Origin: an uncultured delta proteobacterium
GTDB lineage: Bacteria; Desulfobacterota; Desulfobacteria; Desulfobacterales; UBA2156
Length of the DNA stretch: 64,000 bases
Direction: 5' to 3'
Assembly: GCA_963736855.1 (NCBI GenBank)
Contig: CAVTQK010000006.1
Span: 79,328 to 143,327 of the forward strand
Part shown: piece by piece, positions 26,747-64,000 of the stretch
Position numbering within the stretch: position 1 is the stretch's first letter
How the letters are laid out: each line of letters begins with the position of its first letter
Made by a program: the position numbers and the translations under genes
The notes under the pieces: model-generated
What the model was told of the DNA's origin: nothing
What the model saw: the letters and a program-made list of their open reading frames with translations, nothing else
Databases searched by the model: none

Positions 26747-29068
26747 TTAAGCAGGGACGTCCCTGATTTCGATTCCCATGGACCGAAGCCGGTCCCGGAT
26801 TCGGTCCGCAGCGTCCCAGTCTCCGGCGTTACGGGCTGCTTCCCTGCTTTTGATGAGGGCAATGATCTCCGGGTTTGGTGTGCTGTCCTGAAACCGGAAA
26901 ATGTTTAAAACCCTGTCGATATCCTGAAATGCGCGGATAATCTTTTCAGCTCCCTTATCATCAATTTTTCTTTGCCGGATGTCGATGTTGATCTTTCTGA
27001 TATTATTAAAAAGCGACGCCAATGCCTCAGGCATATTTAAATCGTCATCCATGGCCGAAAGGAATCCATGCTTGATGTCATAAAGGAGTTGATCCACCTC
27101 GGGGTCCGGGGCTCCCCCTTTGATCTGCCGGAGGGAATGAATACAAGCGTCGATCCGTCTCAAAACACGTCTGGCTTCTTCCAGCCGATCCTGCGAAAAA
27201 GCCAGCGGCTTTCGATAATGATTGGAAAGAAGCCAATATCGAATTTCGCGGCCGGAGAACCCCTTATCAAACAGATCCTTAAGGGTCACTCCGCCTTGCT
27301 TTTTTTCCTTTTCTGCAGCGTTGAACAGGACCCGCTCACAGTGAATCCAGTAATTGGCCATGGGGTGCCCGGTCAAGGCCACGGAAATGGCGATGTGATT
27401 TTCATGGTGGGGAAAAACCAGCTCCCGACCGCTGGTATGAATATCGTACCGATCCCCCATGGACTTCCTGGCTATTGCCGCACACTGAAGGTGCCACGAC
27501 GGACGAACATTCCCCCACTCGGTCTTAACGAAAATCCCGCGTTTGAGTTCGGAAAGTCTCGACCGTTTCATGAGGGTGAAATCCCTGGGATTGTCCTTTT
27601 CGTATTCATCCAGATCCACCGTAGCCCCGAGCTTGATTTTATTGATATCGATTCCGGACAGTTTTCCGTAATCCGGGATCCGGGAAATATTAAAATAAAG
27701 GGATCTCAGCTTTTCATAGGCAAACCCGCTCTTCTTGAGGTCACGGGCCATCTGAACCATATCTTGGAGATTTCCGCTTGTCCGGGGATAGCTGTCCGCC
27801 GGCCGGACGCCCAGGGATTCAAGGTCCTTTTGAAACCATTGAATGTGCTCATCCGTAAACTCGGGAAGGGAGATATTGGCCGATTCCGATCCTGCCAGGG
27901 TTTTGTCGTCGAAGTCGGTGATGTTTACGATATGACGCACCGCATACCCCCGGTATCCGAGGTACCGGCAAAGCAGATCGGAAAATACGAATCGGCGGCA
28001 TTCTTCGATTTGCATTCGGGCATGTGCGGTGGGACCGCAGGTATAGAGCGAGGCCTTACCGGGAATCAGGGGCTTAAAGATCTCCTCTTTCCGGCTCATT
28101 GTGTTAAAGAGCCTCAAGTCCACCTTTTCTTTTATTGCAAAGAGAGTCGTGCTGAGATACCTTTCCCCGCCGTCCGGAAGGATTACCACCATGACACCCT
28201 TTTCCATGAGAGCGGCTTCCCTGCAAGCAATTGCCATGGCCGCGCCGCTGCTCATCCCTGCAAAAATCCCCTCTTCTTTGGCCAGCCGTCGGGTCATCTC
28301 GAAAGCTTCTTCATCCTCGACGTTGATCTTTTTATCCAGGCGATTCTTATCGAAGATTTCAGGCTGGTAAGCCTCTTTCATGTTCTTAAGCCCCTGGATT
28401 TTATGACCCAGGTAAGGCTCCACACCGATAATCTGGACGGCCGGATTGTATTCCTTCAGCCGCCTCGAGATCCCCATAAGGGTGCCTGATGTCCCCAGGG
28501 TCGCCACCACAGCGGTAACCGCTCCATGGGTCTGGCGCCAGATCTCTTCGGCAGTTCCATGGTAATGGGCTTGCCAGTTGGCATCGTTGTTATACTGATC
28601 CGGCATGAAATAAAAATTCGGATTCTCCCGGGACATCCGATAAACTTCCTCGATGGCGCCGTCGGTTCCTAAGTGTCCCGGGGTCAGAAGGATCTCCGCC
28701 CCCCGAGCCTTAAGGATTTTTCTTCGCTCTTCACTCACCGCTTCCGACATGGCCAAGAGGAGGTGGTATCCCTTCACTGTACATACCAATGCCAGGCCGA
28801 TTCCCGTGTTACCGCTGGTGGCTTCGATGACCGTTTTGTCGGGCTTCAAAAGGCCGCAATGTTCCCCGGCTTCAATCATGGAAAGCGCAGGGCGATCTTT
28901 CACCGATCCGCCCGGATTAAACGATTCCAGTTTCGCCAATAGCCTCACCCTCGGGTTGGGGTTTAACCGCCGAATCTCCACTATAGGGGTGTTGCCGATG
29001 GCATCAAGGATGGACTGGTTCATTCGTGCTGGATCCTCAAATTCGGCCAGAGCCTGCACGCATGCCAT
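26747..29068 (-). CDS. Fusion protein: PLP-dependent cysteine synthase (CysK/CysM-like) N-domain plus cysteinyl-tRNA-synthetase-like C-domain with degenerate class-I motifs
   Basis: Residues 1-310 carry NTPIVE, GGSVKDRPA (PLP Lys), TSGNTGIGLA and ILPDGGERYLST. From about residue 318, LRLFNTMSRKEEIFKP...LYTCGP...NITDFDDK...WHLQCAAIA...FPHHENHIA aligns to CysRS. However, HIGH is replaced by MQIE and KMSKS by KEKKQ. Confidence 0.8.
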   Translation of the reverse strand: MACVQALAEFEDPARMNQSILDAIGNTPIVEIRRLNPNPRVRLLAKLESFNPGGSVKDRPALSMIEAGEHCGLLKPDKTVIEATSGNTGIGLALVCTVKGYHLLLAMSEAVSEERRKILKARGAEILLTPGHLGTDGAIEEVYRMSRENPNFYFMPDQYNNDANWQAHYHGTAEEIWRQTHGAVTAVVATLGTSGTLMGISRRLKEYNPAVQIIGVEPYLGHKIQGLKNMKEAYQPEIFDKNRLDKKINVEDEEAFEMTRRLAKEEGIFAGMSSGAAMAIACREAALMEKGVMVVILPDGGERYLSTTLFAIKEKVDLRLFNTMSRKEEIFKPLIPGKASLYTCGPTAHARMQIEECRRFVFSDLLCRYLGYRGYAVRHIVNITDFDDKTLAGSESANISLPEFTDEHIQWFQKDLESLGVRPADSYPRTSGNLQDMVQMARDLKKSGFAYEKLRSLYFNISRIPDYGKLSGIDINKIKLGATVDLDEYEKDNPRDFTLMKRSRLSELKRGIFVKTEWGNVRPSWHLQCAAIARKSMGDRYDIHTSGRELVFPHHENHIAISVALTGHPMANYWIHCERVLFNAAEKEKKQGGVTLKDLFDKGFSGREIRYWLLSNHYRKPLAFSQDRLEEARRVLRRIDACIHSLRQIKGGAPDPEVDQLLYDIKHGFLSAMDDDLNMPEALASLFNNIRKINIDIRQRKIDDKGAEKIIRAFQDIDRVLNIFRFQDSTPNPEIIALIKSREAARNAGDWDAADRIRDRLRSMGIEIRDVPA

Positions 29069-45536: not shown

Positions 45537-48500
45537 ATGAAGATTCTACGCTTTTTTGAAACGAAGGTGTGGCCTCGGACGGCCGGTATTGCAGGATGGC
45601 TTACGCCGTATCTTAAGGCCAACATCTTTTTCGCCAGGGCCTTATCAAGCGTTCCGGCTAATTCCATCGTCTTTTTTCCGGTTGCGATGAACCGTCTGTG
45701 TTGCGGTATTGCCGGAATCATATCATTCGTCCCTCCAAAGAAAATGCAACAGACACCGGATATCCAAGCGGCTGAAAAGCTGTTTGCCCGCATTCGATCC
45801 AACCCGATTTTCTTGCAGGTCGAAAAGGATCCTGAGAGCGGGGACCCGGAAAATCTGCGATCCCGCCTTTTTGATGCCGTTCGAATGCTCAAGCAAGATA
45901 TCCCTTTTTCCCACATCCTTTTGAATCCGCACAGTTACGAGGGTCTGCTGCAACTTGGCCGGGATATCTCCGGTTTTGCGATATCGGAAGACACATGGCT
46001 GGCCGGGAAGATGGGAGTTTTAAAGCCTGAAACCGTGGAATACGCCGTGCATGGCATCGAAACCCTGAAGGACGTATCCTGGTCTCTGCTTTCTGAAATC
46101 GGCGAAAATGTGATCAAGGTGAAGGCACTCCTGAAGGATCAGGAAAAGGACTACCCCTTACACGCGATCCTTACGGCCAAAAAAATCAATTCCGTACTCA
46201 ACAGCATCGACCGCCTTGAAGTCAGGGGCCGGGACTCTGCCGGCATCTCCCTGATTGTGCTTCTCGACAAACCGGTCTTTGATGATTTTCAAAAGGCCCT
46301 GGATGCCCGGGACCTGACCGCATCGTTTCGAGATCGTATGGAAGCGGAATATTTAGTTAATCGGGGAATCGATTGCCGCGAAACCACCTATGAAAACAGT
46401 CGCCCCCTCGTCAGCGTGACTTTGACTTACAAAGTCGCTGCGGAAATCGGGAAACTGGGGGACAATGTCCGTTTTCTTCGAGGACAAATCCGAAATGATT
46501 CCATTTTTCATACCCTGATCCAGCACATTCCCCGGTATTACTCGATATTGTGCCACACCCGATGGGCTTCCATCGGCGGCATCACCGAAGCCAACTGCCA
46601 TCCTGTAGACAACCATTGTCCGGGCACATCATCTCAAAAATCTGGCGTCATTCATGTCTGCTTGAACGGTGATATCGACAATTATCTGGATCTGAAAAGA
46701 ACCTTTGACGAAAACGGGATCCGCATCCACCCCGAGGTCTCAACGGACACTAAAATCATCCCCCTCCAAATTGGAAGCTATCTCAAAAAGGGCTTCGGAG
46801 TCGCGGAAGCGTTCCGCCTGGCGGTCAACGGGTTCGACGGGTCCCATGCCATTGCCATGCACACGGACTTAGCGCCGGGAAAGCTCTTTTTGGCCCAAAG
46901 GGGAAGCGGACAGGCGATTTTCGTCGGCATTGCCCCGGACCATTACATCCCCGCCTCAGAGGTGTATGGTTTCGTGGAAGAAACTCCCGTTTACATCAAG
47001 TTGGAAGGCGACAAAGAAACGGCGGAAAAAACCAAAGGACAGATCTTCATTCTCAATCAGGCTTGCGCCGGCGGGCTTTCAGGCATTTCCGCCATGGGGT
47101 ATGACGGTTCCCCGATCTTGCTTTCGGATGCCGACTTGAAGACCACGGCGATTACCTCCCGGGACATCGATCGACAAGGTTTCTCTCATTACTTTCTGAA
47201 AGAAATCTCCGAATCCCCTCGTTCGGTCAAACAGACCCTCCGGAATCGATGGCATATTGAGGAAGGCCCTCATCGACTGTACAAGGTAAGACTCGATGAG
47301 AAGTCCTTTCCGTCCGCCCTGCGGCAGGCATTCCTTGACAACCAAATCCGACGGATCTTTTTCATCGGCCAGGGAACGGCCGGAGTCGCCGCCGCCGCCT
47401 GCGCTGAGATTTTCAACTATTACCTCAATGACTCTTTGCTGCACATCCACGCAATGAAAGCCACCGAGCTGAGCGGGTTCCGTCTTGACGAAAAAGATGG
47501 GGCGACCGATATGGCCGACGCCCTGGTGGTTGCCATCTCCCAGTCCGGAACCACTACCGATACCAATCGGACTGTGGACATGGTCAGGGAAAGAGGGGCG
47601 CATACTCTGGCTATCGTGAATCGGAGGGACTCGGACATCACTTTCAAGGTTGACGGCATCTTCTATACCAGCAGTGGCCGGGACATCGAGATGTCCGTGG
47701 CTTCCACCAAGGCCTTCTATTCCCAAATCGTGGCCGGGGCGCTCTTGGGCCTTTACATCACTGATCTGAAAAATCGCCGGGACGCCGCGTTTATTTCCAA
47801 AGAGATCCAAAACCTTCTCCGACTCCCGGAGCAGATGGAAACAATTCTTTCCACAAAAGATAAAATCGCTGCATCGGCTGCCAGGCTGGCCGTCACAAAA
47901 ACCTATTGGGCAGTTGTGGGAAGCGGTCCCAACAAGGTGTCCGCAGACGAAATCCGGATCAAACTGAGCGAATTGTGTTATAAAACCATCTCTTCGGACT
48001 ATGTGGAGGATAAAAAACATATCGATCTTTCCTCGGAACCCTTGATTATTGTATGTGCCGCCGGCACTAAAACCACCGTCATTTCCGACATCGTCAAAGA
48101 CACAGCCATCTTTCATGCTCACAAGGCAACCCCCATCGTCATAACCGACGATGGAGATCATCGGTTTGATCCCTATGCCGCAGACGTCTTTCATGTTCCC
48201 ATGGTCGACCAGCACCTCGCCCCCATATTGAATACCCTGGTAGGACACATTTGGGGGTATTACGCCGCCTTGGCCATCAATGAGGGCTCCCGATTCCTCT
48301 TTGATTTTCGGTCAAACCTCCAGAAAATCATAGATGACCACTCAGCAAAAGGGTTGGACATCTACGAATTAATGCTGGAGGAAACGTTTCGGGAAAAAAT
48401 TATTTCATTTTACCATGCATTCCGCAAGAAGAAGGCCGACCACCGGTTCTCCGGCACCATCGGTTTCGACATCGCATCGGAACTGCCCCTTTTGCTCAAA

Positions 48501-49280
48501 TATCTATCCGGCAGGCTCCCGGTGACAGACTTCGAGCTCGATTTCGGTCTCAAGGGGACAGCCTCCAACATGCTGCAATCCCTGTTTCATTATCTGGGCA
48601 AATCCATCAACCAAATGGCCCGACCGGTGGACGCCATCAAGCATCAGGCCAAGACCGTCACTGTCGGGACCAGCCGGATCCGTGAAAAGGTAGAGGGGAT
48701 CCTTTTTGACACCCTTTTTGCACGCCGGTTCGACATCTCCCAGATCACCAACAAGAACGTCATCGTCTTGAAAAATCTGCAGGCGATCATTCGGACGATC
48801 AATGGATCGACCCTATATCGAATCCACGGATTGAATCTGCTGGGAGAACCCTCCGACGAAACCACCATCGAAATGGTGGCAAGGGATGGCACATCCCTTA
48901 CGATCCCTTCCCGCGTCGAAAAGGACACAACGCTGAAAGGTACCAAACGAATCATCGTCCGGGAGGGAAATGTTTACATCGGCAAAGGGCGAAAAGACGA
49001 CCGCAGCATCTTGATCATTCCCATCATCTCCCTTTCCAGCGATCAGCCGAACTTTATCGAACACCTGTTGCTTTTGGATGTCTCCTTCAAAACGGATGTC
49101 TCCTTATCGGACAAGATAAAGGCTCTCGGCGGCAAATACGAACGGATCAAAAACATCGTTCAGGAAAACAGCTTGTCCTGGGAAGACGCCTATCTTAATG
49201 CCATCAAGATGGATGAGCTGTTTGGAAGGTCGGCGGAAAAAATCGGCGAGCAGATCGTCGATCGCTTTAAGAAGGGATGA
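45537..49280 (+). CDS. Giant GlmS-like protein: class-II (Ntn) glutamine amidotransferase domain with a large insertion, two SIS domains and a long C-terminal extension
   Basis: CGIAGI at residues 56-61, RGRDSAG at 230-236, HTRWASIGGITEANCHP, and NGDIDNY. SIS motifs FFIGQGTAG...ISQSGTTTDT and VVGSGPNK. A GlmS-tail-like KTVTVG sits well before the end. 1247 aa, compared with about 609 for GlmS. The start is uncertain (45537 or ATG 45687). Confidence 0.7.
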   Translation: MKILRFFETKVWPRTAGIAGWLTPYLKANIFFARALSSVPANSIVFFPVAMNRLCCGIAGIISFVPPKKMQQTPDIQAAEKLFARIRSNPIFLQVEKDPESGDPENLRSRLFDAVRMLKQDIPFSHILLNPHSYEGLLQLGRDISGFAISEDTWLAGKMGVLKPETVEYAVHGIETLKDVSWSLLSEIGENVIKVKALLKDQEKDYPLHAILTAKKINSVLNSIDRLEVRGRDSAGISLIVLLDKPVFDDFQKALDARDLTASFRDRMEAEYLVNRGIDCRETTYENSRPLVSVTLTYKVAAEIGKLGDNVRFLRGQIRNDSIFHTLIQHIPRYYSILCHTRWASIGGITEANCHPVDNHCPGTSSQKSGVIHVCLNGDIDNYLDLKRTFDENGIRIHPEVSTDTKIIPLQIGSYLKKGFGVAEAFRLAVNGFDGSHAIAMHTDLAPGKLFLAQRGSGQAIFVGIAPDHYIPASEVYGFVEETPVYIKLEGDKETAEKTKGQIFILNQACAGGLSGISAMGYDGSPILLSDADLKTTAITSRDIDRQGFSHYFLKEISESPRSVKQTLRNRWHIEEGPHRLYKVRLDEKSFPSALRQAFLDNQIRRIFFIGQGTAGVAAAACAEIFNYYLNDSLLHIHAMKATELSGFRLDEKDGATDMADALVVAISQSGTTTDTNRTVDMVRERGAHTLAIVNRRDSDITFKVDGIFYTSSGRDIEMSVASTKAFYSQIVAGALLGLYITDLKNRRDAAFISKEIQNLLRLPEQMETILSTKDKIAASAARLAVTKTYWAVVGSGPNKVSADEIRIKLSELCYKTISSDYVEDKKHIDLSSEPLIIVCAAGTKTTVISDIVKDTAIFHAHKATPIVITDDGDHRFDPYAADVFHVPMVDQHLAPILNTLVGHIWGYYAALAINEGSRFLFDFRSNLQKIIDDHSAKGLDIYELMLEETFREKIISFYHAFRKKKADHRFSGTIGFDIASELPLLLKYLSGRLPVTDFELDFGLKGTASNMLQSLFHYLGKSINQMARPVDAIKHQAKTVTVGTSRIREKVEGILFDTLFARRFDISQITNKNVIVLKNLQAIIRTINGSTLYRIHGLNLLGEPSDETTIEMVARDGTSLTIPSRVEKDTTLKGTKRIIVREGNVYIGKGRKDDRSILIIPIISLSSDQPNFIEHLLLLDVSFKTDVSLSDKIKALGGKYERIKNIVQENSLSWEDAYLNAIKMDELFGRSAEKIGEQIVDRFKKG

Positions 49281-54600: not shown

Positions 54601-55527
54601 TTAATTCACTTTAGGGCGAGGCAAAACTTTGGCCATTTCGGCGATTTCCGGGACCTTATGCTCCCACTCAATGGCCATAAGGTGCACGCCAGCCACCCCT
54701 TTCAATTCCTTAAACTCTTCGATCTGCTCCACGGCCATCTTGATTCCTTCCTCCCCCTGTTTTTTCTTGTCCACCCCCTGCAGGCGGCTGATGATCTCGT
54801 CAGGAACGTCCATCCCGGGAACCTTGTTCTTCATATACTTGGCCATGCCGATACTTTTCATGGGAGTGACCCCCGCCAGGATATAGGCTTTTTCCGTCAA
54901 CCCCATGTCGTTGGCTTGTTTGATGAATTCCCGGAATTTATTCATGTTGTAGATGCATTGGGTCTGAATGAAATCGACGCCGGCGGCGACCTTTTTGGCC
55001 AAACGATGCACCCGCCATTCAAAAGGATCGGCGAAGGGGTTCGCAGCTGCTCCGATAAACATTTTTGGAGCCCCGTCCAGATCGGCGCCGCTTAGGAATT
55101 TCCCCTCGTCCCGCATCTTTTTGACCGTAGCGATCAGCTGTATGGAGTCGATATCAAAAACTCCTTTGGCCTGAGGGTGATCCCCGAATTTGCAGTGGTC
55201 TCCGGACAGACATAAAATATTACGTATGCCGTGCGCGTAGGCACCCAGGATGTCCGACTGCATGGCAAGGCGATTCCGGTCCCGGCACACCATCTGGTAG
55301 TTGGGTTCGATTCCATCCTGGATTAAAAAAATGCAGGAAGCCCAGCTTGACATTCGGACCATTGCGGTCTGGTTATCCGTGATGTTGACCGAATCGACAT
55401 TCCCCTTCAAGAAAGCGGCCTTTTTTCGCACTTCTTCGGCGTTTGCACCCCTGGGTGGGCCCAATTCGCCGGTGAATGCAAAATGCCCTGCCCTTAAAAC
55501 CTTTTCCAAATTGCTTCCTGATTTCAT
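54601..55527 (-). CDS. metF: Methylenetetrahydrofolate reductase (acetogen/SRB-type MetF)
   Basis: MKSGSNLEKVLRAGHFAFTGELGPPRG...VNITDNQTAMVRMSS is typical of MTHFR. It is paired with the small GPCGG protein upstream. Confidence 0.8.
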   Translation of the reverse strand: MKSGSNLEKVLRAGHFAFTGELGPPRGANAEEVRKKAAFLKGNVDSVNITDNQTAMVRMSSWASCIFLIQDGIEPNYQMVCRDRNRLAMQSDILGAYAHGIRNILCLSGDHCKFGDHPQAKGVFDIDSIQLIATVKKMRDEGKFLSGADLDGAPKMFIGAAANPFADPFEWRVHRLAKKVAAGVDFIQTQCIYNMNKFREFIKQANDMGLTEKAYILAGVTPMKSIGMAKYMKNKVPGMDVPDEIISRLQGVDKKKQGEEGIKMAVEQIEEFKELKGVAGVHLMAIEWEHKVPEIAEMAKVLPRPKVN

Positions 55528-55581: not shown

Positions 55582-55815
55582 CTACTTCTTCTGCCCGGCG
55601 TTATCGGGTTTCGAGTATCCCGGTTGGACCAGGGTTCGAGGTCCGATGTCCTGCCAGTCATTGGCGGGATGCACCTTCATCATCAGATCGAGGCGCCCCT
55701 GCCTGGAAAGACGCTCAAAAATCATAAACCAGGCACAAGGCTGATCCGGATTGATTTCGCAGCTCCCTTTGTTGGTACCTCCGCAGGGACCGTTATACAA
55801 TCCCTTGGCGCACAT
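55582..55815 (-). CDS. metV: MTHFR C-terminal-domain zinc-ribbon protein (MetV-like)
   Basis: MCAKGLYNGPCGGTNKGSCEINPDQPCAWF signature, with the start at ATG 55815. The ORF-track extension to 55944 runs into IS-derived DNA. Confidence 0.65.
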   Translation of the reverse strand: MCAKGLYNGPCGGTNKGSCEINPDQPCAWFMIFERLSRQGRLDLMMKVHPANDWQDIGPRTLVQPGYSKPDNAGQKK

Positions 55816-55946
55816 GGTGTTATCACGGTCACACACTTCCAGGTAGTATATAATCTTTTGTGTAAATTTTAAAAAAGGGTAAAAAAAGGGCGCTTTTTCT
55901 TTAAAAGGGTTTTGGCAAAAAACACCATAAGAAAGGAAAAGCACCC

Positions 55947-56095: not shown

Positions 56096-56973
56096 ATGCA
56101 AATGAATCTGCAGCTGCATCACGTCGTCAGCGATATTACAGGTGCCACGGGAATGAAAATCATTCGTTCAATCATTGCGGGAGAACGTTCCGCCAAAAAG
56201 CTTGCCTCCTACCGAGACGTGCGCTGCAAAAAGTCCGAGCAGACTATCTCCGATGTACTAACCGGCAACTATCGTCCAGAGCACGTTTTTGCCCTTAAAC
56301 AAGCTGTTTCGCTATATGATTTCTATCAGGGGCAGATTGCCGAGTGTGATAAAGAAATTGAAGCGATGTTATCAAAGCTGAAAACTGAAAAGCCTGCACC
56401 GAACCAGACCCTTCCCAAGGCGCGTCACCGGACCAAGCAGAAAAACGAGCCTGATTTTGCCCTTCGCCAGTCGCTTTACATGTTGGTTGAAGTGGATCTG
56501 ACTAAAAAAACGGAATCGGTGCATACACGGCCTTGCGTCTTATTGCCGAATGCGACAACGATATGGGCAAATGGCCGACATTAAAGCATTTTGCATCGTG
56601 GCTCTGCCTATCACCCGGCAATAAAATATCCGGCGGCAAGGTGCTGGCGAGCAACAAGCGTAAAACCAAGAGCAGGGCAGCAACACTTTTTCGAATAGCT
56701 GCGGTGAATGTCGGAAAAACCCAGACCGCTTTAGGTGCATTTTATCAACGTTTATCCACCAGAATCGGCAAGGCAAAAGCCGTCACTTCCACGGCCAGAA
56801 AGCTTGCCGTCTTGTTTTACAATGTGATGCGGTACGGAACATCATTTGTTGAAACCGGTTCTGATTATTACGAAAAACAGTATATAAAAAAAGTTCTGCA
56901 AAACCTGTCCCGTCGAGCAAAAGATCTGTGCTTCGAATTGATAAAGATGAAGGGACATGCTGCTGCTCCGTGA
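56096..56973 (+). mobile_element. IS110-family transposase pseudogene: 5'-truncated (catalytic DEDD domain missing) and frameshifted
   Basis: NLQLHHVVSDITGATGMKIIRSIIAGE... then NGIGAYTALRLIAECDNDMGKWPTLKHFASWLCLSPGNKISGGK...ARKLAVLFYNVMRYG (Transposase_20 region). The frame changes inside the A7 run at 56504-56510. Confidence 0.8.
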
Positions 56974-57925
56974 ATGTTTCTTAGGAAAGCCACCGCGTAC
57001 TTTGCCAAGGAGTCGCTGCACGGCATGCGGTGATGGAGGAGATGCGACTCGACTATCCGTTGGGGTGTTGTGCCGGGTATTTGGGGTATCGGCCAGCGGA
57101 TTTCATGCCAGGCGCAGCCGTGGGCCTTCTCGGAGGGCGCGGGAAGAGGGACAGTTGGAAACTGAGATCCGGGCCGCCCACAAGCGTACGCGGGAGACCT
57201 ACGGTCCGGAGCGTTTGCAGCGGGATCTGGCGGCTCACGGAGTGCATATCGGGGTACATCGGATTAAGCGCATTCGTCGCAATCTTGGCCTGCGGTGCAG
57301 GCAGAAGCGAAAATTCAAGGTTACCACCGACTCTCGGCACAGTCTGCCGGTGGCCGACAATCTGTTGAACCAGCGGTTCCAGGCCGAGGCACCCTCCCGG
57401 GCGTGGCTGAGTGACATGACTTATATTCCCACCGATGAGGGGTGGCTTTACCTGGTCGGCCACAAGGACTTGTGCACCCGCAAGATCGTCGGCCATGCCA
57501 TGGGCGAGCGCATGACTCGGAATCTTGTGATCGAGTCGCTGCTGCGGGCTGTGGAGACCACAGGATCCTGTACCGGTCTGCTTCATCACTCGGACAAGGG
57601 GAACCAGTACTGCTCTCACGAATACCGAAAGATGCTCGATTGCCTCGGGATGACGGTCTCGATGAGCGGAACCGGGAACTGTTACGACAATGCCCCTATG
57701 GAGAGCTTCTGGGCAACGCTTAAGACCGAGTTGATCTTTCATCGACGTTTCGCTACCCGACTCCAGGCCATTCGGGAAATAACCGAATACATTGAAGTGT
57801 TCTACAATAGACACAGAATTCAGAAAAAGCTGGACTATTTTTCACCAGCGGCATTCGAACACCGATTCTATGAACAGCGGTTAGCAGCATGATAAATTGG
57901 TGTCCACTATTGACGACCGATACCA
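56974..57925 (+). mobile_element. IS3-family element remnant: last ~17 codons of orfA plus DDE orfB, 5'-truncated, with an extra frame break
   Basis: orfA tail LRKATAYFAKESLHGMR*. orfB has D (WLSDMTYIP), D (HHSDKGNQY) and E (YDNAPMESFWATLKTE). The N-terminal EEMRLDYP is in a different frame from VGVLCRVFGVSASG (break near 57059). The right end, near 57925, is a guess. Confidence 0.8.
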
Positions 57926-58184: not shown

Positions 58185-58297
58185 TAAAACTTATGTTATC
58201 TGGTTTGCTGTCAGGGTGTTGATCAAGCCAATCGACGCCCAAATGAATAAGGATATTGATGTTAACCGCCTTAAGATTAATTTTTAAAGGAGTTTTA

Positions 58298-61200
58298 CAT
58301 GACCACTAAAGTTCATGGATCTGTAATGGTAGTAGGCGGCGGAATCGCTGGAATGCAATCCGCCCTGGATCTCGCCAATTCTGGATACTATGTGTATCTT
58401 GTTGAAAAGTCCGCAGCCGTCGGAGGGTTGATGTCCCAGATTGACAAGACCTTCCCCACAAACGACTGCGCCATGTGAATTATCTCACCCAAACTGGTCG
58501 AGGTCGGCCGGCACCTCAATATTGAACTCATTACAACAGCAGAATTAATTGATTTGCAAGGCGAACCTGGGCGGTTCAGCGCTCGGATTCGCCAGGAACC
58601 CCGCTTCGTAGACCTGTTAAAGTGTACAAGCTGCGGGGAATGTGCTAAAGTTTGCCCAGTGTCACTCCCCAACGAATATGATGAAAACCTCTCCCAAAAG
58701 CACGCCGCTTACAAACAATATGCCCAGGCTATTCCGGGAGCTTATGCGATCCAAAAGGCGGATAAAGCGCCTTGCCGTTTAGCCTGCCCTGCTGGTTTGA
58801 ATGTTCAGGGATATGTCCAGATGGTTGGCCAGGGTAAATACAAGGAAGCTCTGGAAATCATCATGGAAGATCTTCCCCTGCCCGGAGTACTCGGCAGGAT
58901 TTGCCCTCATGGGTGCGAAGAAGCTTGCAGGCGGTGTCAAGTTGATGAGCCGGTTTCTATTCGTAATCTTAAGCGCCTTGCAGCAGATCAATTTGATCCG
59001 CGCAAAATAGAAATCAAATGCTTGCCAAGAAGGGAAGAAAAGGTTGCAATCATTGGATCGGGTCCGGCAGGACTTTCAGCAGCTTATCAATTGGCTCGAA
59101 AAGGAATCCTTTCGACAATTTTTGAAGCACAGCCAAAACCAGGTGGAATGTTGAGATTGGGTATCCCCGATCATCGTCTGCCTATCGAAGTTCTGGATAG
59201 AGAAATAGAAGTCATTACCAATCTGGGTGTAGAAATTAAAACCAATTCACCTCTCGGACCGGACTTGACCGTTGATGACCTTTTTAAGAAGGGCTATAAA
59301 GCGGTTTACTTGGCAATAGGCGCCCATAAAGGGATTGAACTGGGTATCCCTGGTGAAAAAGCAAAAGGCGTCCGCCAGGGCGTTGAATTTTTACGTGAAG
59401 TAAACCTTGCAGGCAAAACAACAGTTGGCAAAAAAGTTGCTGTTATCGGAGGCGGAAATGTTGCCATAGATGTTTCCCGCGCAGCAGTTCGATTAGGTGC
59501 GGAGAAGGTGATGATCATCTATCGCCGGACAAGAGCCGAAATGCCTGCCTGGGAAGAGGAAATTCAAGCGGCGGAATCAGAAGGCGTTGAAATTACATAC
59601 CTTTCAGCACCTCAGGAAATTCTTATTGAGGATGGCAAAATCGTTGGGGTGCGCTGCATCCGGATGGAACTTACAGAACCGGATTCTTCAGGACGAAGAA
59701 GACCTGTGCCGGTTCCCAGATCGGAATACGACATTGAAATCGACCAGATTATCCCTGCAATCGGTCAACGTGCGGACCTGAGTTCTATCGAAGATGTTCC
59801 GGATTTGAAATTTACACGGTGGGGAACAGTTGAAGTTGATCCCATCACTTATGCAACAGGAAAAGAAGGTGTATTTGCAGGCGGTGATCTGCAAAGCGGT
59901 CCATGGATCGCAATCGGAGCAATTGCTACCGGGAAGGAAGCTGCCGAATCCATTTTCAGATTCATAGAGGGTCGTGACATGGCAGAAGGAAGGGAAGCCA
60001 TTACCAATGAAAATCCTGTTTACCAACCCATTCCTGAAAATGAGCCTCGTAAAGCCAGGGCAAAAATGCCGCATCTTCTTTTAGAAGAGCGGAAAGACAG
60101 CTTTAAAGAAGTTGAAATGGGGTTTGATGAGACTTCGGGAAAAGAAGAAGCCAAACGATGTTTGAATTGCGGTTATTGTTGTGAGTGTTTTCAGTGTGTG
60201 GGCGCATGTCTTGCAGGCGCTATCGATCATAGCCAGGTTCCGGTGGAAAGAACCATTGATGTCGGTAGCGTAATTCTTTCACCCGGAACTGAAGTCTTTG
60301 ATCCTTCAAAGATGGATGAATTTTACCATTATAAAACAAATCCCAATGTCATGACGGCATTAGAATTTGAACGTATTTTAAGCGCTTCCGGACCAACCAT
60401 GGGACATCTGGTTCGACCCTCGGATCACAAAGAACCGAAGAGAATCGCATGGCTTCAATGTATCGGTTCAAGGGATACCAACAGATGCGGAAACAGTTAT
60501 TGTTCTTCTGTTTGTTGCACCTATGCAGTCAAAGAGGCGATGATCGCCAAAGAACATTCCCACGGCGATCTGGATTGCGCTGTATTCTATATGGATATCC
60601 GGACATTCGGAAAAGATTATGAAAAATATTATAACCGTGCTCGTCATAAAAACGGTGTTCGGTTTGTTAAAGCCAGAGTTCATACCATTAACGAGGAGCG
60701 GGACAATAAAAATTTAATCATCCGATATGCAGATGAGACCGGTCAAATTCAGGAAGAAATTTTTGACATGGTGGTTCTGTCGGTTGGGTTGGAAGTACCC
60801 AAGTCAACAATTGAATTGGCAAAACGGCTCAACATTGAACTCAATCCCCATAATTTTGCTGTAACTCCGACATTTGCCCCGGTTGAAACCACAAGACCCG
60901 GCGTTTATGCTTCCGGTATCTTCCAGGGACCAAAGGATATTCCGAGTTCGGTTACTGAAGCAAGTGCTGCGGCGTGCGCTGCGGGCACATTCATTGCCGA
61001 AGGTCGCGATACGCTAACTAAAAAAGTCGAAGTTCCTGAAGAAATTGATGTTGCAAATAAGGAACCGCGGGTAGGTGTTTTTGTTTGTAACTGCGGCATA
61101 AATATTGCGGGTGTTCTGGATTGTAATGCATTGGTGGAGTATGCCAAGAGCCTTCCTAATGTGGCTTTTGCCAAGCAAAACCTCTTTACCTGCTCCCAGG

Positions 61201-62729
61201 ACTCTCAGGAGATAATGAAGAAAGATATCGAGGAGAACAATCTTAACCGTGTAGTGGTGGCTGCATGCACCCCTAAAACCCATGAAGCCATTTTTATGAG
61301 CACGATGGAAAGTATCGGTTTAAATAAGTACCTCTTTGAAATGGCTAACATCCGCAATCAGGATTCCTGGGTTCATGCAAATAATCCGGATCTCGGCACG
61401 AAAAAAGCGAAAGAATTGATTCGCATGTCGGTGTCTAGAGCTGCCAGTTTAAATCCCCTCAAAGAAAAAGTAATCCCAGTAACCAAGCGGGCGCTTGTCA
61501 TCGGAGGCGGGATTGCCGGTATGAATGCCGCGCTTGGGATTGCACAACAGGGGTATGATGTCGCTCTTGTGGAAAAGGAAAAAGAACTCGGTGGAATGGC
61601 AAGAAATCTTTTTCATACCATTGAAGGAGATGACATCCAGGCATACCTCAAAAAATTGATCGGAGAAGTGAAAAACAAATCCAAAATCAAAGTATATACG
61701 GACGCCCGTATTACTGAATTTAAGGGCTTTAAAGGAAATTTCGTCACAACAGTCACGGTTGGAGGAGAAAAACAGGAAATTAAGCACGGCATAATTATTA
61801 TCTCAACCGGAGCTAAAGAATATCGACCCAAGGAATTCCATTATGGAGAAGATCCACGCGTTGTTACTCAGTTGGAACTGGGCAAACGATTGGAGGAAAA
61901 GGGTGCTTCAGATATTTCAACAGCGGTCATGATTCAATGTGTTGGTTCTCGGAATGAAGAAAATGAAAATTGCTCTCGTATCTGTTGCCAGAATGCAATA
62001 AAGAATGCTTTGACAATTAAAAAAACAAACCCGGATTGTCAGATTTTTGTGCTTTACCGGGATATGAGAACTTACGGATTTTTGGAAGATTATTACCTAG
62101 AAGCCAGAAATCGCGGCGTCATATTTATTCGTTTTGAGCAGGAAGAACCACCGGTCGTCAGTAGCTCATCCGAAGGTCTTGTTGTACGAGTGAAGGATCA
62201 TGTGTTGCAGAGAGACATAGAGATTTCAGCAGATATTCTAGCGCTGAGCGCAGGCGTAGTTGCAGCGGATACCGATGAACTCAGCGGCATCATGAAACTG
62301 AATCGAAGCCCTGAAGGCTTTTTTATAGAAGCCCATGTGAAACTCAGACCTGTGGACATGCCCAGCGAGGGTATTTTCCTCTGCGGTACTGCCCATTCGC
62401 CGAAACTGATATCTGAAACCATTGCCCAAGCGCAAGCAGCCGCTTCTCGGGCGATGACATTCCTTGCCAAGTCAGAACTCAAGCTTTCTGCAATCACAGC
62501 TAAAGTTGATACGGATCATTGTGTGAAGTGTTTAACATGTGTTCGTTCATGCCCATTTGGCGTGCCAGTGTTTAATGAAAAGGAAAAGGTTATTGAAATT
62601 GATGAGGCGCTCTGTCATGGGTGTGGCATTTGTGCGTGTGTTTGTCCGAGGGAAACAATACAACTCAGTTACTATGAGGATGATCAAATAACCAGTAAAA
62701 TTGACGCATTGTTGGCGGAGGGGATGTAA
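58298..62729 (+). CDS. Giant HdrA-GltD-HdrA fusion flavo-iron-sulfur protein (HdrL-type) with a TGA (Sec candidate) at 58476 and a +1 frame break at 58440-58442
   Basis: AAGGAG plus ATG 58298 encodes [17 protein letters not shown]. After a 1-nt shift the frame reads [22 protein letters not shown], then continues as ORF 58554..62729. That ORF contains a GltD/NfnB-like module ([51 protein letters not shown]) and HdrA Cys clusters ([15 protein letters not shown]). It also has a second HdrA module ([27 protein letters not shown]) and a C-terminal 2x[4Fe-4S] region ([24 protein letters not shown]). Confidence 0.75.
58494..58511 (+). promoter_or_regulatory. Candidate SECIS hairpin for TGA 58476
   Basis: CUGGUCG-AGGU-CGGCCGG (7 bp including 2 G-U pairs), starting 15 nt after the TGA. 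Folded by hand only. Confidence 0.35.
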
Positions 62730-63152
62730 TGGCAGAATTTGAACCTAAAATTATTGCATTTTGCTGTGACTATTGAGGATATTCAGCCGCGGACCTGGCA
62801 GGTTCCATGCGACTGGAATATCCAACGAACGTCAAAATAATCCGGGTGCCTTGTACCGGAAAAGTTGATGTCATGCACCTTCTAAGGGCGATTCAAAAGG
62901 GCGCAGATGGCGTTTATTGCGTGGGCTGTTTGGAAGGGGCTTGTCATTATAACGCAGGTAACCTGAGAGCCCGGGAGCGTGTTGAATATGTAAAAAAACT
63001 TCTCAGAAGAGGTAGGGTTGGAGGGTGATAGGGTCAGGATGTATAATCTGACATCGGGTGAAGGTCCAACTTTTGCTGCATATGCAAAAGAAATGACCGA
63101 AAATATCAAAGCGCTGGGACCCAATCCATTAAAGAAATACACAACAACCTAA
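62729..63152 (+). CDS. mvhD: MvhD-like (methyl-viologen-reducing hydrogenase delta subunit family) protein with a TGA (Sec candidate) at 62774 and a +1 frame break near the A7 run at 62992-62998
   Basis: ATG overlaps the hdrA-like stop (TAATG). Reads [49 protein letters not shown]...GADGVYCVGCLEGACHY...EYVKK, then in the next frame EEVGLEGDRVRMYNLTSGEGPTFAAYAKEMTENIKALGPNP. The MvhD consensus is FCCNWCSYAGADLAG. Confidence 0.7.
62788..62811 (+). promoter_or_regulatory. Candidate SECIS hairpin for TGA 62774
   Basis: CGC-GGACC-UGGCA-GGU(U)CC-AU-GCG, with a bulged U, starting 11 nt after the TGA. Folded by hand only. Confidence 0.4.
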
Positions 63153-63157
63153 ATAAT

Positions 63158-64000
63158 ATGGGATCAACTATGGCACAGAAAGAAGTCATTAAAATCGGGG
63201 GAAAGAAGAAGAGCAAGTTCTTGGACAAAGTCAGGGAGATCCTTCCTGAAGAAGGACACCTGAACATGTGTCTGACGTGTGGGCTCTGTTCCTCGGGATG
63301 CCCTGCGACAGGGTTGGAAGGGCTTGATCCGAGGAAAGTGCTTCGCATGGCTGCTCTTGGAATGGATGAAGAATTGTTAAGCACTACAATGGGCATGGAT
63401 GTGCAGTATGTGCTGGCGATGTATGGTCGCATGCCCTATGAAAATCGATATCCCACAATTGGTCTTTAATATGCGGAAAAGCTGGCCTAGTAGAAACTCG
63501 ACCCAAAGGCATATTAGGTTCATGTGATATGGCGTTAAGAAGCGATACGTGTAGCGCCATGGGAGCGACTGAAGAAGATTTTGAATTTGTTGTCAATGAT
63601 GTGCTGGAAGAATATCGGGAAGGACAACCTGAACTTGCAGAAATGCAGGCTCCCATCAACAAGCAGGGTGCAGAATTTTTCTTGAATCAGAATTCAAGAG
63701 AGCCGGTTACAGAACCCGACGAAATGGTTCCGCTATGGAAAATCCTTCATCTGGTTGGCGCAGATTGGACATATGGAACCAAAGGCTGGGCTGCGGAAAA
63801 CTATTGTTTATTCATAGCAGATGACGAGGGCTGGAAGCATATTGTCCAGGTCAAAGCAAAAGCGGTAGATGATCTGGGCTGTAAAGTCTGGCTCAATACG
63901 GAGTGAGGGCACGAACTATTTGCAGTCCGGGCTGGACTGAAAAAATTCAACATTCCTTACAAGTTTGAAATCAAAAGCATCATTCAATATTATGCGCAAT
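63158..64000 (+). CDS. HdrD/DsrK/GlpC-family Fe-S oxidoreductase (partial, runs off the window), two frame breaks and a TGA (Sec candidate) at 63904
   Basis: The first CxxCxxCxxxCP motif (CLTCGLCSSGCP) is in frame 63158. The second (CSMCWRCMVACP) is in the +1 frame from about 63381. The remainder (VETRPKGILGSCDMALRS...DDLGCKVWLNTE-TGA-GHELFAV...) is in a further +1 frame from about 63480. The frame stays open for 31 codons after the TGA to the window end. Confidence 0.5.
63919..63942 (+). promoter_or_regulatory. Candidate SECIS hairpin for TGA 63904
   Basis: UUU-G-CAGUCC-GGGCU-GGACUG-AAA, with a perfect 6-bp core stem, starting 12-16 nt after the TGA. Folded by hand only. Confidence 0.4.

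Follow-up and report, generated by a model that had tools for sequence, protein, structure and literature searches.

The name HdrL was coined for three fusion proteins of Desulfobacterium autotrophicum HRM2 (HdrL1-3), each followed by mvhD and two of the three being selenoproteins, and HdrL was proposed to pass electrons from NADH towards sulfite reduction and called unique to that organism (Strittmatter et al. 2009, PMC2702500). In this study we analyzed a gene of this type, hdrL, in a 64,000-nucleotide stretch of DNA from an uncultured delta proteobacterium of the order Desulfobacterales (contig CAVTQK010000006.1, positions 79,328 to 143,327), which we refer to as the window. A first-pass annotation made from the sequence letters had described the gene as an HdrA-GltD-HdrA mosaic matching HdrL, and this match holds, the original proteins having been described as a "heterodisulfide reductase/glutamate synthase fusion" (PMC2702500). 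We find that the gene probably encodes a selenocysteine (Sec)-containing HdrL, the large HdrA-type subunit of an Hdr-type methylene-tetrahydrofolate (methylene-THF) reductase system made up of HdrL, MvhD, a fused HdrCB protein ("HdrD-like"), MetV and MetF, which would be NADP(H)-linked and bifurcating or confurcating.

A counterpart of this system has been described from acetogens. In the MetFV-HdrABC-MvhD complex of Moorella thermoacetica, HdrA is 1487 aa long, and a GltD domain breaks up its N-terminal ferredoxin and thioredoxin reductase-like (TrxR-like) domains (Kremp et al. 2022, PMC9430772). In its residues 922-1487 an MvhD-like domain is followed first by a TrxR-like domain in which the ferredoxin insert is missing and then by a C-terminal ferredoxin; for the protein as a whole, eight clusters were predicted (PMC9430772). 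The Moorella enzyme exhibits NADH:benzyl-viologen oxidoreductase activity of 190 U/mg (cited in PMC9430772), the purified complex performs viologen-dependent methylene-THF reduction (Buckel and Thauer review, PMC5861303), and in Sporomusa pull-downs MetVF binds HdrA and MvhD (PMC9430772). Moorella and Sporomusa are the only sources for which NAD(P)H:viologen and viologen:methylene-THF activities of such a complex have been reported (PMC9430772, PMC5861303). A glutamate/lysine pair, E356/K409, is regarded as diagnostic of HdrA flavins that bifurcate (Appel et al. 2021, as cited in PMC9430772).

Two further systems bear on the anatomy of HdrL. Fused HdrAs of anaerobic methanotrophic archaea (ANME) have been explained as pseudo-heterodimers with complementary loss of Cys197 and of the HdrA N-terminal domain (N-domain) (Chadwick et al. 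2022, PMC9012536), and in HdrA9-11 of ANME-1 an NfnB-like insert of ~500 aa interrupts the inserted ferredoxin domain (PMC9012536). In addition, a 2026 cryo-electron microscopy study of Methanococcus maripaludis HdrA located Sec197 between the N-domain cluster A3 and flavin adenine dinucleotide (FAD), suggesting a Cys-Sec relay while leaving its role open (PMC13518236).

Anatomy and predicted selenocysteine of HdrL

The open reading frame (ORF) had been annotated as ~1470 residues at 58298-62729. It is a real ORF, but its ATG lies one base later at 58299, and it runs for 1476 residues to a TAA at 62727-62729 with a TGA at codon 60 as the sole internal stop. A mechanical ORF list holds only the part behind this TGA (58554-62729). 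The features of the gene are as follows, with residue numbers referring to HdrL.

58299..62729, plus strand: hdrL coding sequence, 1476 codons with a single UGA (predicted Sec) at codon 60 and a TAA stop, from translation and full-length colinear homologues
58299..58763, plus strand: module 1, first part (residues 1-155), with the HdrA TrxR-like FAD start, C57/U60 and the first inserted-ferredoxin [4Fe-4S] motif C109/112/115/119
58476..58478, plus strand: UGA codon (U60, predicted Sec), exact equivalent of HdrA Cys/Sec197 at an alignment offset of 137 residues
58494..58511, plus strand: hairpin CUGGUCG-AGGU-CGGCCGG resembling a selenocysteine insertion sequence (SECIS), with a 7-bp stem and AGGU loop, 15 nt after the UGA
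58764..60173, plus strand: NfnB/GltD-type module (residues 156-625), with [4Fe-4S] ligands C159/C163/C621/C624 and C202/C206/C210, FAD motif G253xGxxG, and NAD(P)H motif G384GG plus Y408-R-R-T
60174..61043, plus strand: module 1, second part (residues 626-915), with the second inserted-ferredoxin [4Fe-4S] motif C627/630/633/637, the FAD-domain cluster C721/735/739/740, and E691/K745
61059..61478, plus strand: HdrA N-terminal (MvhD-like) domain of module 2 (residues 921-1060), with C930/932/965/990; alignment to HdrA 2-156 at E=8e-49
61479..62498, plus strand: TrxR-like FAD domain of module 2 (residues 1061-1400), with G1069xGxxG and cluster C1214/1225/1229/1230
62499..62726, plus strand: C-terminal 2x[4Fe-4S] ferredoxin domain (residues 1401-1476), from Pfam Fer4_9 and Fer4_21 and the HdrA alignment
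Motifs in residues 1-258: GGGIAG 13-18; a 12-residue ferredoxin-like motif 109-120; CRLACP 159-164; CPHGCEEAC 202-210; GSGPAG 253-258
Motifs in residues 384-740: GGGNVAID 384-391; a 13-residue motif 621-633; QCIGSRD 720-726; CSSVCC 735-740
Motifs in residues 1069-1449: GGGIAG 1069-1074; an 18-residue motif 1213-1230; CxxCxxCxxxC 1408-1418 and 1439-1449

Pfam places Pyr_redox_2 at residues 248-545 (E=9e-57), a Fer4_20 domain of the GltD/dihydropyrimidine dehydrogenase (DPD) type at 143-233 (E=7e-18) and a 2x[4Fe-4S] domain at 1401-1455, with FAD Rossmann motifs beginning at residues 10, 248 and 1065. The best structure-chain matches are HdrA (5odc_A, E=4e-180) and the NfnB-type chains 9bov_A, 8oh5_C, 4ylf_B and 5jca_L (E=1e-83 to 1e-130; individually, 9bov_A E=5e-131 and 4ylf_B E=4e-90). 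Against HdrA 5odc_A the protein aligns in four colinear pieces (query 10-153 with HdrA 147-290, 626-846 with 292-510, 921-1075 with 2-156, and 1324-1471 with 500-649), and identity to canonical HdrA is 45-55% in stretches that cover all four HdrA domains. Residues 154-625 stand in for a single HdrA residue, between HdrA 290 and 292, at a position flanked on either side by a cluster motif of the inserted ferredoxin domain. The copy of the Protein Data Bank (PDB) that was searched holds no solved structure of a fused HdrA.

The block that splits the inserted ferredoxin domain is a module of the NfnB/GltD type with FAD and NAD(P)H sites. It is colinear with the NfnB-like domains of both StnC (8oh5_C) and NfnA (9bov_A), in each case over residues 101-574, and is circularly permuted relative to Thermotoga NfnB: residues 9-43 of 4ylf_B, which contain the RCLxC pair, align with query residues 591-625 after the Rossmann domains, behind 4ylf_B residues 46-461. 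The Y408-R-R-T loop is common to the NADPH-binding chains of NfnB, StnC and NfnA. Full-length family representatives divide at this NAD(P)H loop (residues 408-411) into a Y-R-R-T/S class and a C-L-E class.

The two HdrA modules have lost different parts. Module 1 is without the HdrA N-terminal domain as well as the C-terminal ferredoxin, both of which are present in module 2, while module 2 is without an equivalent of Cys/Sec197, without the inserted ferredoxin domain and without an equivalent of E356. When module 1 with its insert spliced out was compared with module 2 by BLASTP, two colinear matches were obtained (E=2e-12 and 2e-23). In module 2 about 9 residues replace the ferredoxin/NfnB insert of module 1, and TIEGDD replaces DCAMU.

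All motifs named in the first-pass annotation were recovered by translation of hdrL, in the order given there. The HdrA-GltD/NfnB-HdrA fusion was borne out as well: the domain hidden Markov model scan that it had proposed finds the GltD-like module, Pfam together with alignments to HdrA and NfnB structure chains recovers both kinds of module, and the second HdrA module emerges from structure-chain alignment. The Sec/Cys motif in the HdrA FAD start (the TGA at codon 60) and the C-terminal 2x[4Fe-4S] domain (Pfam Fer4_9, Fer4_21) were likewise upheld. Other parts need amendment. The domain order given was right, but the HdrA N-terminal (MvhD-like) cluster domain between the modules (921-1060) had been missed. 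The second, motif-poorer HdrA module exists, although the absence of its inserted ferredoxin domain had been overlooked. Finally, the CLNCG of the annotation belongs by homology to the permuted NfnB-type module, and the HdrA ferredoxin motif starts at C627.

Conservation was determined by translating hdrL from 73 related loci and aligning these with the window protein, for a total of 74 sequences. Residues invariant across this set are C57; C109/112/115/119; C159/163/621/624; C202/206/210; C627/630/633/637; C721/735/739/740; C930/932/965/990; C1214/1225/1229/1230; all three GxGxxG motifs, including G13/G15/G18 of the first; and G384GG/Y408-R-R-T. The eight C-terminal cysteines are kept in 72-73 of the 74, the remainder being alignment gaps. 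This pattern predicts that HdrL carries three flavins and up to nine [4Fe-4S] clusters. In module 1, E691/K745, which correspond to HdrA E356/K409, are invariant (74/74). In module 2, the glutamate position 1195 is A, G, D or S in this clade and K1235 is kept in 66/74; position 1195 is E in most distant full-length representatives.

The TGA at codon 60 aligns with cysteine in other members of the family. Among the fetched loci, the motif FPTxDCxx[U/C] ends in TGA in 81/91 and in TGT/TGC in 10/91; at position 60 of the aligned family Sec is found in 71/74 and Cys in 3/74, and all of the distant representatives (19/19) have Cys. Behind the codon, in the 81 TGA genes, conservation of third-codon positions is 99-100% within the hairpin as compared with 33-88% at neighbouring third positions, and in the 10 Cys-coding genes the same hairpin positions show third-position conservation of 50-70%. 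Synonymous sites that are frozen in the TGA genes alone are the footprint expected of a SECIS element. On this comparative conservation, the UGA at codon 60 is evidently read as selenocysteine.

Proteins of the HdrL type abound in anaerobes. At E<=1e-20, matches to more than 7900 database proteins were obtained, and the best 120 are ~70% identical and mostly ~1394 aa long, a length which indicates that gene callers begin after the TGA; at locus L082 the caller splits the hdrL ortholog into products of 59 aa and 1356 aa. A 50%-identity cluster library yields 7131 proteins at E<=1e-30, a count that includes ordinary HdrA and NfnB/GltD relatives. Nineteen cluster representatives of 1472-1532 aa are colinear over the whole HdrL query at 38-50% identity and keep nearly every cluster ligand, and one distant HdrL clade comes from Clostridia, Synergistota and related metagenome-assembled genomes (MAGs). 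A scan of species-representative genomes gave 80 loci with colinear matches over residues 1-1476 at 61-75% identity. Nearly all of these are Desulfobacterales MAGs, with Desulfosarcina alkanivorans and strain NaphS2 also represented, and the closest relatives, at the top identity of 75%, are Desulfobacterales MAGs that include one of Desulfonema limicola. The annotation had named an assembly chimera as what would undo its reading; the full-length colinear homologues in 80 loci speak to this directly, and the hdrL ORF is genuine and not a chimera. Judged by its sequence features, the gene has every defining trait of the HdrL / Hdr-type methylene-THF reductase (MTHFR) HdrA family.

The operon in relatives and in the window

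A survey of co-occurrence with metF, metV and mvhD, which had also been proposed, was performed by tblastn with the window's neighbour genes, denominators being the loci with enough sequence. mvhD lies directly downstream of hdrL in 66/67 loci, metV is downstream in 49/61 and metF (>=50% identity) completes a metV-metF pair in 46/58; in 79% of loci metV-metF is co-directional and immediately downstream. hdrL is thus one gene of a conserved operon that also contains mvhD, metV-metF and, in many cases, a fused hdrCB gene, which leaves the annotation's description of HdrL as a "self-contained" unit unsupported. At least 15 loci have an hdrD-like gene, placed behind metF or, in the closest relatives (L003, L004, L013) among others, between mvhD and metV, and the product of the L003 ortholog has an HdrC-type dicluster (Fer4) domain and an HdrB-type CCG domain by Pfam. 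The window's metF is 78-86% identical to the metF behind hdrL-mvhD-(hdrD)-metV in L002, L003, L004, L013 and L053. An intact arrangement is seen in L082, where two GcvH-like genes and a divergent PAS kinase and sigma-54 regulator are followed by hdrL, mvhD, hdrD-like, metV (224 aa), metF (310 aa), and then CdhC and a CooC-like ATPase. In Anoxybacterium hadale (Clostridia, L081) a 1507-aa HdrL is encoded between metV-metF-hdrC-like and mvhD, which shows that the hdrL-metVF linkage crosses phyla. The called-gene lists of L081 and L082 contain no hydrogenase or formate dehydrogenase donor genes.

Several other genes recur around hdrL. A PAS histidine kinase and a sigma-54 response regulator are located divergently upstream in 57-58/80 loci (e.g. 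L082 2815-9311; L070 5034-9585), and beyond them, in 23/80 loci, are two GcvH-like (lipoyl-carrier-type) proteins of ~310-330 aa. A second MetF homologue occurs immediately upstream of hdrL in 36/68 loci (e.g. L021 9060-9917); it is 33-38% identical to the operon metF and has no adjacent metV. In the Desulfosarcina-type clade (L070 15166-18191) hdrL-mvhD is followed by Fer4_8, Fer4_22 and NfnA/FlxA-like (FAD_binding_6/NAD_binding_1/[2Fe-2S]) genes, and the Clostridia locus L081 (13010-15877) has metVF plus an NfnA-like gene. With an NfnA-like partner of this sort, the NfnB-type module could have its own high-potential branch. In the window, none of the ORFs that were scanned with Pfam encodes an NfnA-like product.

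In the window, hdrL is intact while the partner genes beside it in the same genome are broken. The neighbouring features are the following.

62729..63152, plus strand: mvhD (FlpD family), Pfam FlpD E=1e-48 on the frame-corrected product; overlaps the hdrL stop (TAATG); Sec codon at 62774-62776 (CCDY-U-GY)
63158..64000, plus strand: hdrD-like gene (fusion of HdrC ferredoxin and HdrB CCG), running off the window end; Pfam Fer4_8/Fer4_17 on the window product
55582..55818, minus strand: metV remnant, the last 73 of ~222 codons, covering only Pfam DUF5981 profile positions 42-95
54601..55527, minus strand (opposite hdrL): intact metF (methylene-THF reductase, 308 aa), Pfam MTHFR E=5e-38
56096..57892, plus strand: insertion sequence (IS) remnants between the metV remnant and hdrL, with IS110-family fragments at 56096-56973 and an IS3-family OrfB at 56957-57892; Pfam Transposase_20, rve/HTH_21

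DNA alignment with four orthologues reveals a one-base insertion in mvhD near 63005, which truncates the product after residue 92, and one-base insertions in the hdrD-like gene near 63376 and 63491. The TGA codons of both genes are conserved in the four orthologues, and that of hdrD-like (63904-63906) lies in LNTE-U-GH where a CCG-type motif is expected. A programmed frameshift in mvhD was considered and rejected, as there is no slippery sequence at the site and the next gene has two further insertions. On the other side of hdrL, a tblastn search of the window with the MetV of L003 matches residues 150-222 alone, at 55600-55818, so that the first 149 codons are gone; nucleotide homology of the remnant ends at ~55819, and from 55820 to ~58280 there is none to orthologous loci. 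The IS3 OrfB is without OrfA, and the IS stretch has a G+C content of 54-55% compared with ~46% nearby. The resulting gene order, metF(-), metV3'(-), IS, hdrL(+), mvhD(+), hdrD(+), fits an inversion of hdrL..metV5' with its other end beyond the window, a proposal based on gene order only. The window as a whole lacks the conserved kinase, sigma-54 regulator and GcvH-like genes, a promoter/terminator scan of 55.5-58.4 kb gave no clear difference from shuffles, and the window genes at 39.7-54.3 kb and the IS ORFs have no counterparts in the 80 related loci. Pfam-scanned ORFs at 51.6-64 kb encode a methyltransferase, a radical-SAM protein, Usp, metF, metV, the IS remnants, hdrL, mvhD and hdrD-like, with no donor genes among them; smaller ORFs of that stretch were left unscanned.

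These lesions raise the question of whether the locus is decaying after an IS-associated inversion and truncation, such that hdrL would be a still undamaged pseudogene-to-be or would serve paralogous partners elsewhere. The shortened metV, the IS110 and IS3 remnants at the breakpoint, the three insertions in mvhD and hdrD-like and the missing upstream genes are all in keeping with this, and as the other genes of the window do not look split, poor sequence quality overall is an unlikely explanation. However, hdrL has 0 lesions in 4431 nt against 3 in the next 1270 nt, where ~10 would be expected in hdrL at an equal rate (Poisson P ~3e-5), and its cofactor motifs are all intact. This points either to continuing selection on hdrL or to lesions that are artefacts confined to this spot; the three insertions may be errors left over from assembly of a paralogous repeat. 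We thus regard decay of the locus as a possible but somewhat doubtful explanation; given the damaged partner genes, the activity of this hdrL copy is uncertain.

Two features of the window lie apart from this locus. A single 773-aa ORF at 26747-29068 (minus strand) combines a pyridoxal phosphate-dependent, cysteine-synthase-like domain (PALP, 20-299) with a complete cysteinyl-tRNA synthetase (331-771), and in a 1247-aa protein at 45537-49280 (plus strand) Pfam recognises one SIS domain alone (604-737).

Proposed electron path and competing readings

From the anatomy, the conservation of cofactor motifs, the Sec decoding signals and the conserved operon, all of which are directly observed, we infer the wiring, NADPH preference, reaction and direction described here. 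HdrL would join two HdrA modules whose losses complement each other, and would thus be a "heterodimer" within one chain. As C57/U60 and the inserted ferredoxin occur only in module 1 and the N-domain only in module 2, the protein would contain one complete low-potential wire. By analogy with HdrA structures, this wire would run from the module-1 FAD through C57/U60, the N-domain [4Fe-4S] cluster, the two inserted-ferredoxin clusters and the two NfnB-type clusters to the NfnB-type FAD and NADP(H). Since the NfnB-type module is grafted at the inserted-ferredoxin clusters, the wire would continue to a third flavin and NAD(P)(H) and not to a ferredoxin docking surface. Electrons may also leave the module-1 flavin through its own [4Fe-4S] cluster in the TrxR-like domain, through MvhD, or through module 2 (its TrxR-like domain cluster and the C-terminal ferredoxin), and gene linkage suggests that these exits lead to MetV/MetF and the CCG protein. 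The putative bifurcation signature belongs to the module-1 flavin; the flavin of module 2 is without it in this clade and would more probably act as a relay. The loop classes predict NADPH for the Y-R-R-T clade, and C-L-E members would fit NADH.

The most likely reaction would be a reversible, flavin-based bifurcating or confurcating coupling of three couples: methylene-THF/methyl-THF (-200 mV) via MetVF, NADP+/NADPH, and a third one served by either the CCG protein or ferredoxin. It would run in the direction of methyl-THF oxidation in sulfate reducers that oxidise their substrates completely. A more specific and decidedly speculative proposal, which we think unlikely, is that in the Sec-containing HdrL-MvhD-HdrD-MetVF system of Desulfobacterales NADP+, reached by way of the NfnB-type module at the end of the low-potential wire, replaces ferredoxin as the low-potential acceptor, with methyl-THF as donor and a disulfide as high-potential acceptor. 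Electrons of methyl-THF (-200 mV) would then be delivered by MetVF and MvhD in the position usually taken by a hydrogenase, and the CCG protein would act on a protein disulfide as the acceptor. This acceptor may be DsrC or one of the GcvH-like lipoyl proteins found upstream in 23/80 loci, the latter being possible thiol/disulfide substrates of the CCG protein. If true, this proposal would explain how complete-oxidising sulfate reducers pass the thermodynamically awkward oxidation of methyl-THF and would identify the long-sought "second substrate" of Hdr-type methylene-THF reductases.

A number of observations count against assigning HdrL to an NADP(H)-linked methylene-THF reductase. The preference for NADPH is read from a single loop motif, and no enzyme from this Desulfobacterales clade has been purified. 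For the Moorella complex no physiological reaction from NADH to methylene-THF has been established, and the second acceptor is not known (PMC9430772, PMC5861303). Linkage to metVF is missing in 12/58 loci, mostly of the 61-62%-identity Desulfosarcina-type clade. HdrABC/HdrL of Syntrophobacter fumaroxidans was detected only with sulfate, and the authors linked HdrL to DsrC (Sedano-Nunez et al. 2018). In the window itself, frameshifts interrupt mvhD and hdrD-like, metV survives as a truncated remnant, metF lies on the opposite strand, and the upstream kinase and sigma-54 regulator are absent. As for selenocysteine, the stability of the hairpin does not differ significantly from that of shuffled sequence (z = -0.08), and an Rfam scan of 58200-64000 at E<=5 returned chance matches to unrelated families and no SECIS model; short bacterial SECIS hairpins are weakly modelled, so the Rfam miss carries little weight.

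The same complex might also work in the direction proposed for Moorella, with NAD(P)H entering via the NfnB-type module as mid-potential donor and with methylene-THF and a low-potential acceptor being reduced. This is the published proposal for MetFV-HdrABC-MvhD (PMC5861303, PMC9430772), and the gene set is the same. GltD-type modules are normally NAD(P)H input modules, as in glutamate synthase and DPD, which are among the homologues recovered here. On the other hand, Desulfobacterales are mostly complete oxidisers, which should run this step as methyl-THF oxidation. Furthermore, ferredoxin is reported not to have worked as the second acceptor with the Moorella complex, and canonical HdrA uses its inserted ferredoxin domain as a low-potential exit and not an entry (PMC9012536, PMC13518236). 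We consider this direction unlikely, though worth keeping in view, for the Desulfobacterales enzyme.

Alternatively, HdrL could be independent of MetVF: in an NAD(P)H-linked reaction it would reduce the disulfide or trisulfide of a protein (DsrC or similar) by which sulfite reduction is fed, and the metVF genes nearby would reflect nothing more than co-regulation. Such a role corresponds to the original proposal for Desulfobacterium autotrophicum, in which HdrL1-mvhD adjoins dsrABC (PMC2702500), and it agrees with the sulfate-only detection in Syntrophobacter fumaroxidans, with the CCG protein encoded in many loci and with the existence of one HdrL clade without metVF. However, metV-metF is co-directional and directly downstream in 79% of loci of this gene's clade, the linkage to metVF also occurs in Clostridia that do not reduce sulfate, and MetVF of Sporomusa binds HdrA and MvhD in pull-downs (PMC9430772). 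We judge this role to be improbable. That the long ORF is an artefact, either a chimera of separate hdrA and gltD genes or a gene ending at the TGA, can be dismissed with near certainty: the in-frame TGA leads public gene callers to split or shorten the gene, but the same full-length domain order is found in 80 independent assemblies and 19 distant representatives, and the TGA aligns with Cys and has a conserved hairpin behind it.

An electron-transferring subunit of a methylene-THF reductase thus remains our preferred assignment for HdrL. It would place the protein at the only step of the Wood-Ljungdahl pathway whose electron carriers lack identification, both in Hdr-type acetogens and in complete-oxidising sulfate reducers. 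The anatomy described here (the single wire, Sec at HdrA position 197, the permuted NfnB, the loop classes and the lost second-module glutamate) offers concrete targets for assays and mutants.

Comparison with known systems

Canonical HdrA (MvhADG-HdrABC and Hdr-Vhu-Fwd; PDB 5odc, 8rvu) has cluster motifs, the E/K signature and Sec197 in common with HdrL. It is a homodimer of 650-aa chains for which a hydrogenase or formate dehydrogenase is the donor and a ferredoxin or polyferredoxin takes up the low-potential electrons, whereas in HdrL the four domains are spread over two fused, non-identical modules. For this reason, and because no hydrogenase or formate dehydrogenase gene was seen adjoining it among the ORFs scanned with Pfam, HdrL is not a canonical HdrA. 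Nor is it an NfnB subunit. NfnB, StnC and NfnA (Bfu type; 4ylf_B, 8oh5_C, 9bov_A) share with HdrL the FAD and NADPH Rossmann domains, two [4Fe-4S] sites and Y-R-R-T, but NfnB is a free subunit of ~470 aa paired with NfnA (FAD/[2Fe-2S]), while the module of HdrL is embedded and permuted and no NfnA partner lies beside hdrL among the scanned ORFs of the window.

Complementary loss and an NfnB insert are both known from ANME, where they occur in different proteins and the N-domain half comes first; HdrL unites both in one chain with the Cys197 half first. HdrL1-3 of D. autotrophicum, from the same order Desulfobacterales, have the same fusion with mvhD behind it, and two of them are selenoproteins, a likeness drawn from their description and not from sequence. 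In contrast to the uniqueness claimed for them (PMC2702500), the present survey reveals a very large family that is linked to metVF.

HdrA of Moorella, whose MTHFR is also called Hdr-type or "6S-type" (Mock et al. 2014, from the accounts in PMC9430772 and PMC5861303), has the same domain order as the window HdrL at 1487 vs 1476 aa, and the same partner set of MvhD, MetV, MetF and HdrB/C-type proteins. The numbering runs nearly in parallel, with second halves at 922-1487 vs 921-1476 and the signature pair at E696/K750 vs E691/K745, the Moorella values being those of the published text. The first-pass annotation held the role of HdrL to be not established; a counterpart with viologen activities has in fact been published for the Moorella MTHFR complex (PMC9430772, PMC5861303), although the physiological reaction is still unproven. 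There are also clear differences. Moorella retains the second-module glutamate (E1204) that is lost in the window clade, its enzyme oxidises NADH while the nucleotide loop of the window protein is of the NADPH-type Y-R-R-T, and the operon of the window is broken. The window clade further differs from Moorella by the predicted Sec at HdrA-197, by MvhD and the CCG protein being putative selenoproteins too, by the fusion of HdrC with HdrB and by its Desulfobacterales hosts.

Taken together, the window adds no new kind of system and its copy has damaged partners, and the HdrL family itself, though important, has been recognised since 2009-2014. The gene belongs to a Sec-containing and probably NADPH-linked subclade, which by its predicted traits would be set apart by Sec at HdrA-197, selenoprotein partners, a fused HdrCB, an NADPH-type loop and the loss of the second-module glutamate.

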